A stretch of 64,000 bases of DNA from an uncultured bacterium (GTDB lineage: Bacteria > UBP4 > UBA4092), in assembly GCA_963768165.1 (NCBI GenBank), contig CAVYHJ010000002.1, positions 195,283-259,282 on the forward strand, in the 5' to 3' direction. The translations under genes and the position numbers were made by a program. This document shows positions 11,017 to 38,261 of the stretch, one piece after another. Below the pieces are notes generated by a model. It was not told the DNA's origin, made no database searches, and saw only the letters and a program-made list of their open reading frames with translations. How positions within the stretch are numbered: position 1 is the first letter of the stretch; the number at the start of each line of letters is the position of its first letter.

Positions 11017-11237
11017 ATAAAAAACGCTCGAAAGGCACGTTCCCTTCGAGCGGTTATTGCCACCACTAAAAGCGCTATGTTAGAAACGTCCACTGTCTCT
11101 CCCACGCCTGCGGGGTTAGCTGTTGGGTTCGGGTTGAAAAGTAACCCTGCGCGTTTCCGCGATTCACCCCCTGACATCGGTTCCCCCGTCTCTTGCGAGC
11201 TCGGCGATCTTTCGTGGGATTCTTATTCCAAATTTAA
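11017..11237 (-). promoter_or_regulatory. Candidate c-di-AMP (ydaO/kimA-type) riboswitch leader, copy A, with intrinsic terminator
   Basis: Conserved core shared with three other copies (RNA sense ...GGGGGAACC...GGGGUGAAUC-CGCG-GAAA-CGCG-CAGGGUUACUUUUCAACCCGAACCC..CAGCUAACC..GCAGGCGUGGG); 3' hairpin CGCUCGAAGG/CUUUCGAGCG plus U-run at 11017-11055; extended -10 TGATATAAT at 11245-11253; start codon 10996 about 20 nt past the U-run. Confidence 0.6.
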
Positions 11238-13414: not shown

Positions 13415-13442
13415 GTAGAGACGTAACATGTTACGTCTCTAC
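13415..13442. other. Perfect 28-nt palindrome
   Basis: GTAGAGACGTAACATGTTACGTCTCTAC; no adjacent T-run. Confidence 0.6.
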
Positions 13443-14195: not shown

Positions 14196-14894
14196 TTATT
14201 CTTTGGCTCCGGCATCTTTCAGGAGTTTTACGATGTCGTCATATTTCTTATATGTCGCTATTGATAAGGCAGTTTTACCATCATTGGTTTTCGTATTGAT
14301 ATTGGCTCCTTTATCTAGCAAGGCTTTCATGGTATCCATACGACCACCACGAACCGCCCACATCAAAGCAGTATAACCAATAACATCTTTCGCATTGACC
14401 TCCGCGCCTTTCGCTAATAAGGCTTGTACGGTCTCGTTATGTCCTACAACTGCCGCATTCATCAAGGCGGTCATACCGTACTTGTTTTTCGCATTGACCT
14501 CCGCACCTTTCGCTAATAAAGCGTTCACGATATTCGTTTGGCCCCACCATGCCGCTGACATCAAGGCGGTGTTACCAAACTTATTTTTTACATTAACATC
14601 GGCTCCTTTCGCCAATAAAGCTTGCACGGTATCTGTATGACCATTTTCTTCTGCTAACATCAAAGCGGACACACCTGTACTATCTTTCACATTCGGGTTC
14701 ATCCCCGCATCCAAATATAATTTTATAACATCGGTTTTGCTATGTCCTGCACATTTAAAAAACTCATCTTCGCTATAGGTAATCTTCATTTGCGCCAGTT
14801 CATTACGCGCTTCTTGCGGGGTTTTGGCGAAGGAAGGGAATACCAGGAACAAAAATAGTACAAGAGAGAGACACGGTAATGGTTTCAATTTCAT
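14196..14894 (-). CDS. Secreted ankyrin-repeat protein
   Basis: Signal peptide then repeated TALM.AA..GH...V..LL.KGA.VNAK units; AAGGAG RBS. Confidence 0.8.
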   Translation of the reverse strand: MKLKPLPCLSLVLFLFLVFPSFAKTPQEARNELAQMKITYSEDEFFKCAGHSKTDVIKLYLDAGMNPNVKDSTGVSALMLAEENGHTDTVQALLAKGADVNVKNKFGNTALMSAAWWGQTNIVNALLAKGAEVNAKNKYGMTALMNAAVVGHNETVQALLAKGAEVNAKDVIGYTALMWAVRGGRMDTMKALLDKGANINTKTNDGKTALSIATYKKYDDIVKLLKDAGAKE

Positions 14895-14976
14895 TATAAT
14901 TGGTACTCCTTTTTCCTCTAGAATGTATGGCGTCGGGAAAAAGAAGAGCGTTTATTCCCGACGCAGTTTTATTCTG

Positions 14977-15783
14977 TTATTCTTTCGCCCCGGCACTCTT
15001 GAGGAGTTTTACGACGTCGGGATGGTTCTCTTTTGCCGCGTCCATCAAAGCAGTATGACCTTCATTATCTTTCGCATTGACTTGAGCACCTTTTTTTAAT
15101 AAGACTTTAACGGTCTCTGCATGACCTGTGACTGCCGCAAACATCAAGGCAGTCCTGCCATTATTGATTTTCGCATTGACTTCAGCACCTTCTTTTAATA
15201 AGACTTGCACAGTCTCCGTATGACCATTCACTGCCGCTAATATCAATGCGGTCACACCACCCTTGTTTTTTGCATTGACATCCGCCCCTTTTGCTAATAA
15301 GGTTTGAACGATCTTCGTATAACCAAACTCTGCCGCAAGCATCAAGGCGTTTTTACCTTGTTTAGTTATCGCATCAACTTTTGCCCCTTTTGCTAAAAGG
15401 GCTTGCAACGTATCTGTACGACCACTAAGTGCCGCCCATGTCAATGGGGTCCAGTCATCGTTTGATTTCGCATTAATATCAGCACCTTTCGCCAATAAGG
15501 CTTGTAGAGTCTCAATATTATTATGAAATGCCGCAGCCATCAAGGGGGTTCGACCATTATCGTCTTTCAAATTCGGATTCATCCCAGCATCTAAAAACAA
15601 TCTCACAGCGTCAGTTTTGCCGTGTTGTGCACAAAAGAGAAATTCATCTTCGCTATAGGTTATTTTCATTTGCGCCAGTTCATTGCGCGCTTCTTGCGGG
15701 GTTTTGGCGAAGGAGGGGAATACCAGAAACGAAAATAGTAAAAGAGAGAGGCTTAATAATGGATTGAATTTCATCATACTTGG
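14977..15783 (-). CDS. Secreted ankyrin-repeat protein (paralog)
   Basis: Start placed at internal MMKFNPLLSL (AAGGAG RBS) rather than the ORF-track start; same N-terminal FLVFPSFAKTPQEARNELAQMKITYSEDEF as neighbour; at least six ankyrin units. Confidence 0.8.
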   Translation of the reverse strand, partial: PSMMKFNPLLSLSLLLFSFLVFPSFAKTPQEARNELAQMKITYSEDEFLFCAQHGKTDAVRLFLDAGMNPNLKDDNGRTPLMAAAFHNNIETLQALLAKGADINAKSNDDWTPLTWAALSGRTDTLQALLAKGAKVDAITKQGKNALMLAAEFGYTKIVQTLLAKGADVNAKNKGGVTALILAAVNGHTETVQVLLKEGAEVNAKINNGRTALMFAAVTGHAETVKVLLKKGAQVNAKDNEGHTALMDAAKENHPDVVKLLKSAGAKE

Positions 15784-16064
15784 TACTCCTTTTTCCCAAA
15801 GAATGAGAGAGTTTTTTATTACCGATAGCATACTCCCTTCTAGAACCCAGAGTCAAGTTAAAGAGTGGAAGGAACGGGAGAAACGGAGAATGGGCGAGAG
15901 AGCGAAATAGAATCAGGAATGAAGGAAAAGGTCAAATATGTTACCTGCTCCAGCAAAGAGATACCCATTATTTTGCCTATAAATAGACAGGTAGAAAAGA
16001 GTTGAAAAGATAACAGATTGTGCTATAATTTTTCTTAGTCAAAAACGGTCGGGAGGACACTTCG

Positions 16065-23022: not shown

Positions 23023-25002
23023 CTATTTGGTTTTGGCGGAGTAGTTGTAGATAGCCAGCGAGATGACGCTGAGGAAGGATTCGAGGAGATAGTCCTGTTC
23101 TTGCGAGAGGAACTGAGAATCCTGCGGACGACCGATAGCGAGGACGCCGACAATATCGTTTTTGACGTTCAAGGGGATAAAGCGCCACGCGGAAGAGGAG
23201 AGAGTCTGGGTCTCCCGACCGGCAAGTTCCTTGTGCTCAAATACCCATAAAGCGATAGTCATTTCGTGACTATTAAATTTCACAGAGTCACCGGTTTGGG
23301 AGCGGATAGTGAGTTTACCGGTTTTGTCGGGAAGCAGGAGCGCCGAGTCACAGGCGAACATTTCGGAAATGTCCGAACTGATTCTATCGAGCAAATCAAT
23401 AAACCCGATAGCGTGATACAAATCCTGGCTGAATTCATTGAGCAACGAAATGTACCGCACCTGGGTGCGGGAAGATTCCGATTGCCGTTTGAGACGGTCG
23501 GCAAGGAGACTTGTCACAATGCCGACTAAAAACATGACAAAGAACGTGGGCAGATAACTCATATCGCTGACTGTAAAAGTGAAAATCGGCGGAACAAAAA
23601 AGAAATCGAAACAAAGCACGCTCAACAGGGATGCGACCAGACCGCCGATGAGTCCGCGATAAATCCCTGACAGAATCACGGGAATGATGAATAAAAGGGC
23701 AACATTCGTGAGACCGATGTAAGAATGAAGAGGAAAGCAAATGAGAGTGGTTGCGCCCACGATGGCAAGGCTCATAAGATAGGAACGCCAATCAAGAACG
23801 AGATTGCTTCGTCGCTGCGCTCCTCGCAATGACAAAGGTTGTGGTGACGATTCGCCACCGACTACCAAGACTTGAATAGGATTGCTTTTATCAATAATCT
23901 GGTTCAAGAGTGACCCGCGTATCATTCTACGAAACCGGGATTGGCCGGAGAAACCAACAATAATCAACGAGGCATTTTTTGAACGGGCAAACCGCACGAC
24001 TTCATCGGCAGGCTGGTTGCTGGAAAGACGGACAATTTTCCCGCCCAATTCTTTGGCGAGATTAAAATTCTTCTCCAACTGTTTAGCCCTTTGCGGGTCG
24101 AGCGTAGTTTGCACCTGTGGTTCGACATAGACCGCAAACCAATCGGCTTTTAAATCTTCCGCCAACCGATGTGCCACGCGGACGGGTTGTTCGGACAAGG
24201 GACTCGGACTGATACATACCATAATCCGGGTGCCGACGGGCCAGGGACCTTTAATGCCCTGCAATTGCATGTAAGAGAGCATGGCATCGTCCACGTGCTT
24301 GGCGGTATAGCGCAGGGCTAATTCGCGGAGCGCGAGCAAAGTGCCTTCTTTAAAATAATTCTGGGAGGCGAGTTTCGCCATATTGGCCATGTAGACTTTA
24401 CCTTCGGTTAAGCGCTGGAGAAGTTCTTCCACGGGAAGGTCTACGAGAGCAATTTTATCCGCCAGTTCCAGAATGCGGTCGGGGACGGTTTCCTTCACTT
24501 CAATTTTGGTAATTTGATAAATAATGTCATTGACACTTTCAATATGCTGGATGTTCAAGGTGGTGTAGACACTGATACCGTTATTGAGGAGTTCTTCAAT
24601 ATCTTGAAACCGTTTTACATGGCGTGACCCGGGGACATTGGTATGCGCCAATTCATCCACCAGAACATATTTGGGTTTGCGCTTAAGAATATAGTCCAGG
24701 TTAAACTCATCCAAGACCATACCCTGATATTCTATTTTCAGGAGGGGAGAACGTTCCAATCCAAAAATCAACTGTTCGGTTTCGGCACGACCATGGGTTT
24801 CGACAATGCCGATAATGATATCTTCGCCCTTTTGTTTGATCGCCTGGGCTTCCTGCAACATGCGGTAGGTCTTGCCGACACCGGCCACGTACCCTAAGAA
24901 TATTTTAAGAAATCCCCGGGTGCGATGCTGCTGTTCCTGTTCTTTATTAAACAGGTTCAGCAGTTGATCCGGATCGGGGCGATTTTGATTCTGTTCAACC
25001 AT
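23023..25002 (-). CDS. kdpD: KdpD sensor protein lacking histidine-kinase domains
   Basis: N-terminal P-loop GVGKTY, USP-like region, 4-TM block and GAF-like C-terminus; ends at 659 aa with no H-box or HATPase motifs; directly downstream of kdpC. Confidence 0.75.
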   Translation of the reverse strand: MVEQNQNRPDPDQLLNLFNKEQEQQHRTRGFLKIFLGYVAGVGKTYRMLQEAQAIKQKGEDIIIGIVETHGRAETEQLIFGLERSPLLKIEYQGMVLDEFNLDYILKRKPKYVLVDELAHTNVPGSRHVKRFQDIEELLNNGISVYTTLNIQHIESVNDIIYQITKIEVKETVPDRILELADKIALVDLPVEELLQRLTEGKVYMANMAKLASQNYFKEGTLLALRELALRYTAKHVDDAMLSYMQLQGIKGPWPVGTRIMVCISPSPLSEQPVRVAHRLAEDLKADWFAVYVEPQVQTTLDPQRAKQLEKNFNLAKELGGKIVRLSSNQPADEVVRFARSKNASLIIVGFSGQSRFRRMIRGSLLNQIIDKSNPIQVLVVGGESSPQPLSLRGAQRRSNLVLDWRSYLMSLAIVGATTLICFPLHSYIGLTNVALLFIIPVILSGIYRGLIGGLVASLLSVLCFDFFFVPPIFTFTVSDMSYLPTFFVMFLVGIVTSLLADRLKRQSESSRTQVRYISLLNEFSQDLYHAIGFIDLLDRISSDISEMFACDSALLLPDKTGKLTIRSQTGDSVKFNSHEMTIALWVFEHKELAGRETQTLSSSAWRFIPLNVKNDIVGVLAIGRPQDSQFLSQEQDYLLESFLSVISLAIYNYSAKTK

Positions 25003-27739: not shown

Positions 27740-27806
27740 ATATTATCTCCTTAGAACCACCACCCCCTTCCCCCTCCTTAATTAAGGAGGGGGACTGAGG
27801 GAGTGA

Positions 27807-29507: not shown

Positions 29508-29737
29508 AAATTTCCTTTCTTTTGTAATTTAGGCTTTTACTTTATACAACAGCCTGAATTTTACTACTATTCAAAAATCAATTCAACTGTTTTCCTTTTA
29601 CATGGTACCCTCCATTAAAAAATTGGCTTTTGAAAATATTAGATTACACTTTTGCTCAATTTAAACAATCTTAAAATTGCAAAGAATTGTGTTACTACAA
29701 CTGATAAATAATAAAAAGAAGTTAGGTGGAGGGTTCA

Positions 29738-29896
29738 TAAATAAAAAACCCACTCACTCTTCCACGCCTACGAGGTTAGCTGACGGGCTCGGGTTGAAAA
29801 GTAACCCTACGCTTTCGCGATTAGCCCCAACTTCCGGTTCCCCCGTATCTTTCGAATTCGGCGAACTTAAGTGGTAATACTGCTATATTTTTCTAC
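29738..29896 (-). promoter_or_regulatory. Candidate c-di-AMP (ydaO/kimA-type) riboswitch leader, copy B
   Basis: Same conserved core as copies A, C, D; internal GNRA-capped hairpin CGC-GAAA-GCG; 3' tail GAGUGAGUGGGUUUUUUAU. Confidence 0.6.
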
Positions 29897-34819: not shown

Positions 34820-35179
34820 CTACAAAAATGAAACTGCGCATTCATCCGTTTCTCCGGTACGAATACGAACGGCTCTTTCGATTGGAAACACATAAATTCT
34901 GTCATTGGAGACTTTGCCATTACGCGCGGCAAACATCATGGTTTCCACAATCCGGTCGGTTTGTTCTCGGGGAACAACCACTTCAACTTTCAATTTGGGC
35001 AGAAAATCCATAATATACTCCACTCCCCGATAAACTTCTTTATGCCCTTTTTCCGTCCCACAGACTTGAACTTCTGTCACGGTGATGCCTTGAACTCCAA
35101 GGGCCTGAAGCGCGTCTTTCACATCATCCAACTTATACGGTTTAATGATGCATTCAATTTTGTTTAACATATTTAACAT
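34820..35179 (-). CDS. P-II (GlnB/GlnK-like) signal-transduction protein, first gene of kdp operon 2
   Basis: KIECIIKPYKLDDVKDAL...GITVTEV...EVYRGVEY...FLPKLKVEVVVP...RIRTGE aligns with GlnB; T-loop and GDGKIF-like B-loop are diverged; AGGAGG RBS. Confidence 0.75.
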   Translation of the reverse strand: MLNMLNKIECIIKPYKLDDVKDALQALGVQGITVTEVQVCGTEKGHKEVYRGVEYIMDFLPKLKVEVVVPREQTDRIVETMMFAARNGKVSNDRIYVFPIERAVRIRTGETDECAVSFL

Positions 35180-35427
35180 GTTTCTTTAACCTCCTATGTA
35201 GCAAGTTAATCTCGATTCAAATATTTTTTAATTAGCAAAGTGCGGAGCCGGAAACTTAAGGAGGAAACCGGCTCCGCGATTAGCCCATATAACACAATTC
35301 AAAAATATGGGTTAACTTTTAAATTCTAATTACATCATCCGATACATGTATTTGGACTTAAACCAAAATTAACGTCATGTATCTATAACGATGAATCAAT
35401 TATTTAGGAAGTTAATGGGGTGGGGTT

Positions 35428-35590
35428 TCAATAAAAAACCCACTCACTCTTCCACGCCTGCGAGGTTAGCTGACGGGCTCGGGTTGAAAAGTAACCCTAC
35501 ACCTTGCGGTGATTCGCCCCAACTTTCGGTTCCCCCGCCTTTTTCAAGCTCGGCGAACTTAAGTGGTACTATTAAAATTCTATGTTATTT
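35428..35590 (-). promoter_or_regulatory. Candidate c-di-AMP (ydaO/kimA-type) riboswitch leader, copy C
   Basis: Conserved core; internal hairpin CACC-GCAA-GGUG covaries with GCGC-GCAA-GCGC (D), CGC-GAAA-GCG (B) and CGCG-GAAA-CGCG (A). Confidence 0.6.
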
Positions 35591-35760
35591 TACTTATATA
35601 AAAATAACGCATATCCCATACCAGTTATAATGAATTCTAAAGGTTTTCAACAACTCAAATATTTTCAATATTTTACAATTAAATCTGTAAAAACCATTCG
35701 GTAAACTTATGACATAAATGTCATTTAGAACTGCGAAACATTGTCATAATTATGACATTT

Positions 35761-35976
35761 TTAGAAACAGTTATGTTTTTTTATGTTCAAGTTATGGATC
35801 ACCTTTAATTGGCTATTTGAGTTATTTTTGTTTTTGGCACACTTAGTTAATACCACCCCACCTTGAGGGTGAATTGCTTTATCGGAGTTATAAAGCATAT
35901 CCTGCAAATCCATAATTTGATCCCTCATAATTCGGATCATATAATCTTCCTGTAACTCGTAATGGGCATGGATCAT
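35761..35976 (-). CDS. Small helical protein, paralog b
   Basis: 71 aa; AAGGAG RBS; shares an RDQIMDLQDML / RLQIMELQRFL segment with the next gene. Confidence 0.4.
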   Translation of the reverse strand: MIHAHYELQEDYMIRIMRDQIMDLQDMLYNSDKAIHPQGGVVLTKCAKNKNNSNSQLKVIHNLNIKKHNCF

Positions 35977-36001: not shown

Positions 36002-36220
36002 TTAGTACATCAGGAACTTTTGACGGAGTTCCTGGCGCAATTTTTTTAATTGCAATTCGATATTACTTAATGTTTCGACGCCCAATTCGCCATCCTTTTG
36101 AAAACCGTGATTATGTTCCAGCGCCTTTAGAAATCTCTGCAATTCCATAATCTGGAGGCGTAATATACTCGCTCTGAAATCTTTCATTCGACTCATATTT
36201 ATGCCTATTTGAACTCTCAT
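36002..36220 (-). CDS. Small helical protein, paralog a
   Basis: 72 aa; start overlaps the stop of the upstream P-II gene (ATGA). Confidence 0.4.
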   Translation of the reverse strand: MRVQIGINMSRMKDFRASILRLQIMELQRFLKALEHNHGFQKDGELGVETLSNIELQLKKLRQELRQKFLMY

Positions 36221-36558
36221 ACAGCGCTTTCAGACAGTTCTCCAGTTCGAATCCGAACAGCCATATCAATGGGAATCACAATAATCTTAATGTTGGAGAT
36301 ATGATTATTACGCAAGGTTGAAGTAATCGTATCTACAGCCCTGGAGACCATTTCTTCAGGGAGCACTAACTCGATTTTCACCTTAAGTAAATAATCAACG
36401 TTGAACTCTACTCCACGATAAACTTCAGTAGGTTTAATTTCTCGATTAGAAACTTTAACCTCCGTGGCCGCCAATCCGTGAATACCAATATCAAGGAGGG
36501 CTTCTTTCACTTCCTCCACTAGACTGGGTTTGATAATGCACTCGATTTTTTGTAACAT
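36217..36558 (-). CDS. Divergent P-II-like protein (paralog 2)
   Basis: MLQKIECIIKP...ATEVKV...EVYRGVEF...KVKIELVLP...RIRTGE; GlnB-like fold signature with altered T-loop. Confidence 0.6.
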   Translation of the reverse strand: MLQKIECIIKPSLVEEVKEALLDIGIHGLAATEVKVSNREIKPTEVYRGVEFNVDYLLKVKIELVLPEEMVSRAVDTITSTLRNNHISNIKIIVIPIDMAVRIRTGELSESAV

Positions 36559-36686
36559 GGTTATTTACCTCCTCATAAATTTTTTATTTTGTGTTCTCAA
36601 TCGTTTTCATTTCATTGGGACGCCGGATTGGGTGATGTGAATCCGGCGCCCATTAATCCCCCAATAAATATAGTGGATAGCTTGTA

Positions 36687-37028
36687 CTAAGCCGCTTTCG
36701 GATACCATTTTTGGGGATATTGTTCACTTACAACCATTACCGGGACCACATAAAAGTTTCCCTTTGTTTTACCATCAACACAAATAATACGAGTGATGGT
36801 CTCAATCACCCTGTTTACCAGATGTTGGGAAACGATAGTTTCGATTTTGGTGTATGCCTGGAACTCCAACTTGTATTGGATACCCCTATAGGATAAGGTC
36901 GGGCTATTAACCGGATCATACACTTTGGCATCAGAAAGTGTAATCTCATCAATACCCATACCCTTTAGGGCTTCAGTGACTCCACCCAATTTATAGGATT
37001 TGATGGTGCATTCGATTTTTTGAAACAT
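36687..37028 (-). CDS. Divergent P-II-like protein (paralog 3)
   Basis: MFQKIECTIKSYKL...SYRGIQY...TKIETIVS; weaker GlnB-like pattern, C-terminal RxR motif absent. Confidence 0.5.
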   Translation of the reverse strand: MFQKIECTIKSYKLGGVTEALKGMGIDEITLSDAKVYDPVNSPTLSYRGIQYKLEFQAYTKIETIVSQHLVNRVIETITRIICVDGKTKGNFYVVPVMVVSEQYPQKWYPKAA

Positions 37029-37912: not shown

Positions 37913-38097
37913 TTTTCTCCTAACTTTTTGACGAGCAGAGCCGGACTGGTGGCAATCCGACCCTGCTCTAACCCCGCTCATACAATTCAAAATACGGGAT
38001 ATCTTTAAATCCTTAAAAAACACCTATAAGGATTATTTCCAATACATACTGTACAAAAAATGATTAAATTGGTTTAGGAAGTAAAATGGGAGGGTTA

Positions 38098-38261
38098 TAA
38101 ATAAAAAACCCACTCACTCTTCCACGCCTGCGAGGTTAGCTGACGGGCTCGGGTTGAAAAGTAACCCGGCGCTTGCGCGCTTCGCCCCTACTTCTTGGTT
38201 CCCCCGCCTCTTACGAGCTCGGCGAACTTAAGTGGTGCTAAGTTCTTGATTTAATTTTCTA
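38098..38261 (-). promoter_or_regulatory. Candidate c-di-AMP (ydaO/kimA-type) riboswitch leader, copy D
   Basis: Conserved core with GCGC-GCAA-GCGC hairpin; 3' tail GAGUGAGUGGGUUUUUUAU; M23 peptidase gene downstream. Confidence 0.6.

Follow-up and report, generated by a model that had tools for sequence, protein, structure and literature searches.

In a 64,000 nt stretch of DNA from an uncultured bacterium (here called the window; features marked (-) lie on its minus strand), a short GC-rich hairpin interrupts the untranslated leader of a P-II gene, raising the question of whether this hairpin controls the translation of the gene or is a structural part of its mRNA. An earlier, sequence-only reading of the locus described the stem and reported that its loop is complementary to the Shine-Dalgarno (SD) sequence of the P-II gene; an extra layer of translational control, or a processing site, was proposed.

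The hairpin upstream of the P-II gene

The hairpin, HP4-C, is at 35242-35277 (-), with arms GCGGAGCCGG (35268-35277) and CCGGCUCCGC (35242-35251) enclosing the 16 nt loop UUUCCUCCUUAAGUUU (35252-35267); the order on the minus strand is GGGCUAAUC GCGGAGCCGG UUUCCUCCUUAAGUUU CCGGCUCCGC ACUUUGCUAAUU. It is a genuine stable stem-loop in the 5′ UTR between the leader C riboswitch and the P-II gene, as had been reported, although the span first given for it, 35252-35287, has to be moved 10 nt lower. The GC-rich stem is perfect over 10 bp, as described, with nine of the ten pairs being G-C in a leader with a G+C content of 34 %, and it folds with -22.2 kcal/mol (z = -5.1), a stability equalled by none of 200 shuffled sequences. 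Of the perfect stems in the 64 kb window that have 10 bp or more and a loop of 3-20 nt, it has the highest G+C, and block shuffles lead to an expectation of 0.07 perfect stems (at least 10 bp, at least eight G-C pairs) per window. HP4-C is thus real and far beyond random expectation.

The complementarity that was reported for the loop is likewise present: CCUCCU (35259-35264 (-)) matches the AGGAGG of the P-II SD over 6 nt and no more, extension either way giving U-U mismatches. There are 15 occurrences of CCTCCT per 64 kb on the minus strand, so that the chance of CCUCCU inside one 16 nt loop is roughly 0.3 %, which is uncommon but not extraordinary. The loop sequence CCUCCUUA equals the 3′ end of Escherichia coli 16S rRNA. 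From the SD, the stem is 46 nt away and the CCUCCU 63 nt away; the earlier figure of about 90 nt between loop and SD is right only if measured from the loop to the AUG.

Leader C and its c-di-AMP riboswitch

The P-II gene (PF00543; 34820-35179 (-)) has its SD, AGGAGG, at 35190-35195 (-) and its AUG at 35177-35179, and is the first cistron, followed by kdpF, kdpA, kdpB, and kdpC. At its start, a 9 nt tandem duplication (AUGUUAAAU AUGUUAAAC; 35162-35179 (-)) generates two in-frame AUGs; the 9 nt unit is present as a single copy in two relatives, L001 and L003. This P-II-kdpFABC operon (operon 1) is controlled by riboswitch C, the aptamer of which (RF00379, 101 bits) is at 35440-35565 (-), with the small hairpin HP1 (GUGGGUUU...AAACCCCAC; 35420-35443 (-)) enclosing the U-tract after it. 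HP4-C is 163 nt downstream of the aptamer and beyond the span of the RF00379 model. Two operator-like perfect palindromes, ATGTCATAATTATGACAT and ATGACATTTATGTCAT, are found at approximately 35700-35765 (-), just upstream of the presumed riboswitch C promoter.

Comparison with Rfam identified four c-di-AMP aptamers in the window, all on the minus strand. Besides C, aptamer A (11090-11216 (-)) heads an amino-acid-permease-family gene, aptamer B (29750-29873 (-)) heads kdpABC-kdpD (operon 2), and aptamer D (38110-38234 (-)) heads an M23 peptidase operon. Riboswitch A has a classical hairpin-plus-U terminator. Riboswitches B, C, and D share the invariant 3′ end GGCGUGGAAGAGUGAGUGGGUUUUUUAUU, then HP1, then a conserved ACUUCC(U), with 200-260 nt from the aptamer to the start codon. 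In these three, a U6 tract directly adjoins the extended closing helix of the aptamer, suggesting that the closing helix doubles as a terminator stem.

Eight related leaders were compared, of which six retain the ACUUCC core (B, C, and D of the window and copies in L089, L090, and L091, which are related loci); the other two, one in L090 and one in L091, have a CUUCC core in a different setting. This core is complementary to GGAAG at the 3′ end of the aptamer, and a GGAAG/CUUCC plus GGG/CCC helix is recovered by RNAalifold. The GGAAG/CUUCC helix would compete with the closing helix of the aptamer, and binding of c-di-AMP would therefore free ACUUCCU, which in leader C could then pair with the P-II SD. 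The picture fits an OFF switch, to which the U6 after the closing helix may add termination.

No Rfam family was found for the region between the riboswitch and the gene that contains HP4-C and the hairpin before it (HP3): searching with leaders C and D at E up to 10 returned noise only. Likewise, leader C had no BLAST match among plasmids, a metagenome scan using the 20-mer from the riboswitch 3′ end gave one chance match inside a coding region, and a search using a spurious antisense ORF over riboswitch C returned only the window's own genome and no other leaders. The Na+ riboswitch is a known tandem partner of c-di-AMP riboswitches and is upstream of the aptamer in the known cases (PMC9337991). 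It was rejected as the identity of HP3-HP4, being on the wrong side of the c-di-AMP aptamer and having no Rfam match.

A family of related hairpins

HP4-C is one of four related hairpins. HP4-D (GAGCAGGGUCGGA(UU)-GCCACC-(AG)UCCGGCUCUGCUC; 37933-37968 (-)) belongs to leader D, where it precedes the SD of the M23 peptidase gene by 12 nt; the real start of this gene is the AUG at 37912-37910. HP4-E (GGGCGCCGGAUU-CACAUCACCC-AAUCCGGCGUCCC; 36617-36651 (-)) is in the spacer between two P-II paralogues, copy E of the module as a whole spanning 36604-36691. The fourth, HP4-L089 (GGGUAGGGUCGGGUU-CCAGCCAUCG-AAUCCGACCCCCUCC), is in the orthologue of leader D in a metagenomic relative with an M23 peptidase that is 78 % identical to that of the window.

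When leaders C and D are aligned, homology extends through the aptamer, HP1, and ACUUCCUAAA, is followed by a divergent stretch, and resumes with AUUUAAA(A)G..CCC.U.UUUUGAAUUGU and the GC-rich hairpin, ending at the 3′ foot of the hairpin. HP4 is thus the last element common to these paralogous leaders. Directly 5′ of HP4-C is HP3-C (35284-35311 (-)), which has the stem CCCAUAU/AUAUGGG and the conserved loop UUUUGAAUUGUGU; the alignment with leader C places HP3-D at 37973-37998 (-), with the loop UUUUGAAUUGU as in HP3-C. Together, HP3 and HP4 make up a module of approximately 90 nt that is present in leader C, in leader D, and, shortened, between two P-II genes. A covariance model of HP3-HP4 (A2, R1) was built from C, D, and L089; it scores D at 99 bits, C at 96 bits, L089 at 106 bits, and E at 24.6 bits (E about 1e-3), and identifies no further copy, either in the remaining 61 kb of the window or in 730 kb from other loci.

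Across the four copies of HP4, 86 % of the cells hold standard pairs, a share that falls to 29-52 % once the 3′ partners are slid, and four pairs have changed on both sides; the observed covariation score is reached by four of 500 shuffles. These covariation statistics are weak, since there are only four copies from two organisms. For HP3 and HP4 together, 87.5 % are paired and six pairs have changes on both sides. The strands also differ. HP4-D folds with -28.4 kcal/mol on the sense strand and -17.6 kcal/mol on the antisense strand, and HP4-L089 with -22.8 and -20.4 kcal/mol, respectively, because several of the differences are from G-C to G-U or U-G; in HP4-C and HP4-E, the antisense strand is the slightly more stable one. 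Based on the retention of pairing despite differences in the stem, and on the G-U pairs of D and L089 that form only on the sense strand, the HP4 stem seems to be maintained as RNA on the transcribed strand, as far as four sequences from two organisms can suggest.

The loops of D and L089 differ by a 4 nt indel, therefore HP4 is non-coding. For the same reason, and for want of an SD, a coding or leader-peptide reading of the 29 aa GTG ORF at 35206-35295 was rejected, as was an N-terminal extension of the M23 peptidase.

Segments predicted to pair with the P-II SD

The four loops, UUUCCUCCUUAAGUUU (C), UUGCCACCAG (D), CCAGCCAUCG (L089), and CACAUCACCC (E), are all C-rich, and CCUCC is present only in that of C. 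The anti-SD motif is therefore not conserved among the related leaders. The SD itself is sequestered in the predicted folds of leader C, by partners other than the HP4-C loop. In the whole of leader C, the best complements of the SD region are a distal segment, UUAACUUCCU (35406-35415 (-)), which includes the ACUUCC core and is complementary to AGGAGGUUAA at 10 of 10 positions, and a proximal segment, UUAACUUGCU (35200-35209 (-)), which matches at nine of 10 and forms a local hairpin with AGGAGGUUAA of -6.5 kcal/mol. The fold from HP1 to codon 7 (-77.4 kcal/mol, z = -5.7) pairs AGGAGGUUAA with UUAACUUCCU with a probability of ~1; if the aptamer is included, or if a short RNA from the start of the hairpin is folded, the SD pairs with UUAACUUGCU instead. 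The HP4-C loop is never the partner of the SD in these folds, which allow nested pairs only.

Duplex energies with the SD are -13.6 kcal/mol for the distal segment, -9.8 kcal/mol for the CCUCCU of the HP4 loop, and -9.1 kcal/mol for the proximal segment. The loop opens at a cost of 0.7 kcal/mol; for the SD, the opening cost is 10.1 kcal/mol in the full post-aptamer leader, 6.1 kcal/mol with the distal segment blocked, and 5.6 kcal/mol in the short RNA. The net energy of a loop-SD contact is thus between about +1 kcal/mol, with the distal partner free, and -3.5 kcal/mol, with it blocked. Such a contact is possible but predicted to be weak and energetically marginal, and would be mutually exclusive with the better partners. 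In leaders D and L089, HP4 folds robustly and the adjacent SD is predicted to be mostly unpaired; masking of the SD is therefore not a property of the HP4 family.

An arrangement in which the loop pairs with AGGAGG in cis, as a pseudoknot or loop-strand contact that adds translational repression, has in its favour this favourable net energy once the distal anti-SD is blocked, the low cost of opening the loop, the scarcity of CCTCCT on the minus strand, and the C-richness of all four loops. It is nevertheless doubtful, given the motif's absence from D, E, and L089, the two longer complements that take the SD in every nested fold, the unfavourable energy while the distal partner is free, and the open SDs beside HP4 in D and L089. 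For these reasons, the extra layer of translational control that had been proposed is not supported as the main function of the hairpin. Masking of the SD would be mainly by these two UUAACUU(C/G)CU segments, distal and proximal, and the CCUCCU of the HP4-C loop would be a copy-specific and at most auxiliary third partner.

A proposed structural element of the mRNA

Because the SD-complementary loop is unique to copy C, HP4-C is tentatively considered to be a routine element of mRNA structure or stability, belonging to a REP-like low-copy family, rather than a dedicated translation switch; this is the reading that is preferred here, at somewhat less than even confidence. HP4 would then represent a small family of GC-rich RNA stem-loops, specific to this lineage and located in untranslated spacers of the c-di-AMP/K+ cluster, acting as an autonomous and very stable mRNA element, either as a barrier to exonucleases or as an insulating and compacting stem-loop. 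Such a stability or insulator role is purely inferred. In leader C, HP3-HP4 would lie inside the long loop between the distal anti-SD UUAACUUCCU and the SD. The processing site that was suggested earlier as an alternative is compatible with the data. Against a merely structural role, the C-richness of all four loops and the uncommon CCUCCU could point to a function of the loop, and the invariant loop of HP3 suggests specific recognition, for which a structural element would have no need.

REP and intercistronic stabilizer hairpins, such as that of E. coli malE-malF, can protect mRNA from exonucleases and promote rearrangements. Like these, HP4 is a GC-rich imperfect palindrome of 35-40 nt in transcribed spacers, with several diverged copies kept as hairpins. 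Unlike these, the three copies in the 64 kb are clustered, with one more in L089, there is no GTAG and no RAYT nearby, and the copies are upstream of start codons rather than after the stop codons of abundant genes. The 5′ stabilizer stem-loops of Gram-positive bacteria, as in the ermC and aprE leaders, act at the extreme 5′ end of the transcript. HP4-C resembles them in being a very stable stem-loop at a short distance 5′ of the SD within a long leader, although a 5′ end near HP4-C would require processing.

C-rich anti-SD sequences or loops are used by the SD-sequestering elements of translational riboswitches and by the Firmicute sRNAs RsaE and RNAIII. HP4-C likewise exposes a CCUCC-type sequence complementary to an SD; it differs in that the motif, present in only one of four family members, is encoded in cis at a distance of 63 nt from the SD, and that two longer complements within leader C out-compete it.

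The preceding hairpin, HP3

C, D, and L089 have one and the same HP3 loop, UUUUGAAUUGU, on a stem that covaries, with CCCAUAU/AUAUGGG in one form and CCCGUGU/ACGCGGG in the other (A-U to G-C at two pairs). In all three, reading of the alignment shows the loop to be complementary over 9-11 bp to an upstream AAUUUAAA(A)G, so that the two helices are mutually exclusive, and this loop-upstream pairing is used in the fold of leader C. An H-type pseudoknot combining HP3 with the upstream AAUUUAAAAG helix was considered and set aside as sterically doubtful, with 5-7 nt left to bridge 9-11 bp; it is more likely that the loop and the upstream segment take part in alternative helices.

These features raise the possibility that HP3-HP4 is an undescribed regulatory RNA, either a binding site for a protein, RNA, or ligand or a relay of helices, providing a second input after the c-di-AMP riboswitches. 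The invariant loop in a covarying stem, the mutually exclusive helices, and the lack of any matching Rfam family are consistent with this. The reading is unlikely, however: the module is known from two organisms only, copy E keeps HP4 without the conserved HP3 loop, the more distant c-di-AMP/M23 leaders of L090 and L091 do not contain the module, no ligand or protein candidate has emerged, and the downstream genes, P-II-kdp and an M23 peptidase, are dissimilar.

Origin of leader C and mobile palindromes

In L001 and L088, P-II-kdp directly follows a 60/61 aa ORF, without riboswitch, HP3, or HP4. The P-II protein of L001 is 85 % identical to that of the window, and L088 is syntenic, with the M23 peptidase gene ... 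two small ORFs, P-II, kdpF, and kdpABC. The 3′ end of the window's small ORF diverges exactly at the start of the ~580 nt leader C. As the P-II-kdp genes of L001 and L088 have neither riboswitch nor hairpin upstream, leader C is a lineage-specific acquisition, paralogous to the D-type leader. The closest P-II relative, L003 (95 % identity), is on a 542 bp contig that starts 27 nt before the AUG and so does not extend to the hairpin, and the best match in a KdpA-based scan of reference genomes has 57 % identity.

The 206 nt stretch of leader C that holds HP3-HP4 begins with the 15-mer AUUAACUUCCUAAAU and is immediately followed by AUUAACUUGCUACAU, a direct repeat of it at 13 of 15 positions; seven of 200 shuffles do as well. 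Copy E has HP3′-HP4 without a riboswitch. Elsewhere, the kdpA2-kdpB2 spacer of the window (27769-27794) contains UCCCCCUCCUUAA|UUAAGGAGGGGGA, with the perfect 12 bp palindrome CCCCCUCCUUAA|UUAAGGAGGGGG, and the same spacer of L001 (2622-2649) instead contains the GTAG-type palindrome GUAGAGACGUAACAUGUUAUGUCUUUAC, which recurs in the window at 13415-13442 between convergent ORFs. This difference between the spacers, and the recurrence of the L001 palindrome, indicate that palindromic REP-like elements are mobile in this lineage. In L088 (9106-9262), a BBP2 porin gene with a c-di-AMP riboswitch has in its leader, after the riboswitch, a long C/G-rich palindrome, CCCUCACCCCCUGCCCCCUCUCCCAGUGGGAGAGGGGAAAAAGGGGUGAGGG, sitting where leaders C and D of the window carry HP2-HP4.

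HP4 could be a selfish DNA palindrome of the REP or MITE type, functionless as RNA, that local duplication or transposition has spread and that spacers merely tolerate. Three copies in different contexts within 2.8 kb, the direct repeat bracketing the leader C segment, the mobility of other palindromes, and, in L088, a Y1 transposase gene (PF01797, Y1_Tnp) together with a long palindrome of another kind at the corresponding place in the leader would all agree with this. The explanation is improbable, on the other hand, for elements that are absent from the remaining 61 kb of the window, that are all in the sense orientation, and that have diverged by substitutions that keep the pairing, including G-U pairs specific to the sense strand; HP4 also has no GTAG motif, and a screen of eight window ORFs found no PF01797.

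Remaining explanations

There is a small chance that HP3-HP4 is a structured RNA module not described before that works with c-di-AMP riboswitches, as a relay of alternative helices, a second sensor, or a protein-binding site, and brings the decision of the riboswitch over ~200 nt to the ribosome-binding site; in leader C, the HP4 loop would have evolved to imitate the 3′ end of 16S rRNA and would mask the SD.

It is very improbable that HP4-C works as an intrinsic terminator or attenuator of transcripts that read through riboswitch C. The stem is stable and GC-rich enough, and its tail, ACUUUGCUAAUU, has some U, but there is no U-tract 3′ of the stem (tail ACUUUGCU), the terminator scan does not report HP4-C, and the related copies have A-rich tails, likewise without a U-tract (GUCAAAAAG, AAUGAAAUG, AUCAGGAAA). 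U-tract terminators are used by this organism, as at riboswitch A, and riboswitch C has its own U6 directly after the aptamer. The absence of a U-tract from every HP4 copy is the reason for rejecting this reading.

Least probable of all is an operator or promoter element acting in the DNA: there is an inverted repeat, a TTGAAT in the HP3 loop, and a good TTGAAT-17-TAAAAT in leader B and in L001, but C, D, and L089 have no -10 hexamer 16-18 nt after the TTGAAT, for which reason the promoter reading is rejected. The promoter scan has no minus-strand match there and none that is sigma-70-like just upstream of HP4-C, the G-U-type substitutions break the palindrome in the DNA, and operators do not typically have arms 16 nt apart.

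The K+-uptake gene cluster

Three PF00543 P-II paralogues are present in the K+-uptake cluster, at 34820-35179, 36217-36558, and 36687-37028, all (-); the M23 peptidase gene under riboswitch D is followed by an 84 aa ORF, the latter two of these P-II paralogues, and two small ORFs. Linkage of P-II and kdp is also seen in L001 and L088, and in a literature search no paper was found that links canonical P-II to Kdp. The operon of riboswitch B encodes KdpABC and then a KdpD without kinase domains; this KdpD homologue (23023-25002 (-)) has KdpD-N, Usp, DUF4118, and GAF, and no HisKA or HATPase. No KdpE was found among the window ORFs tested, resembling the situation in Bacillus thuringiensis. Between riboswitch B and kdpA2, at 29540-29590 (-), is the good sigma-70-like promoter TTGAAT-17-TAAAAT, which is conserved in L001 (825-870), where kdpA has no riboswitch before it; this may be an internal promoter that bypasses riboswitch B. 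Two adjacent genes for ankyrin-repeat proteins, unusual in bacteria, are at 14196-15831 (-).

In B. thuringiensis, the kdpFABC leader has a c-di-AMP (ydaO-type) riboswitch, an OFF switch with a U-tract, followed after the riboswitch terminator by 143 nt of unexplained spacer; KdpE is absent, and KdpD is without its kinase part (PMC6488665). The window has in common with this system a c-di-AMP aptamer upstream of a kdp operon, a U-tract, a KdpD without kinase part, and a long extra 5′ UTR, about 250 nt in leader C compared with the 143 nt. It differs in that the U-tract of leader C directly follows the closing helix of the aptamer itself and in that the first cistron is a P-II gene; the repeated two-hairpin module of leader C is not described for B. 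thuringiensis.

Significance

Four c-di-AMP riboswitches are present in this single window, with two kdp operons, a P-II gene, an M23 peptidase, and a permease under their control. If HP4 only stabilizes or insulates the mRNA, it is a routine feature, and a warning that an anti-SD-like loop is not in itself evidence of translational control. If HP3-HP4 is regulatory, the module would show by what means the decision of a c-di-AMP riboswitch reaches a distant start codon across a very long leader, for which the unexplained 143 nt of the B. thuringiensis kdp leader are an example case, and how such leaders get copied onto new genes.
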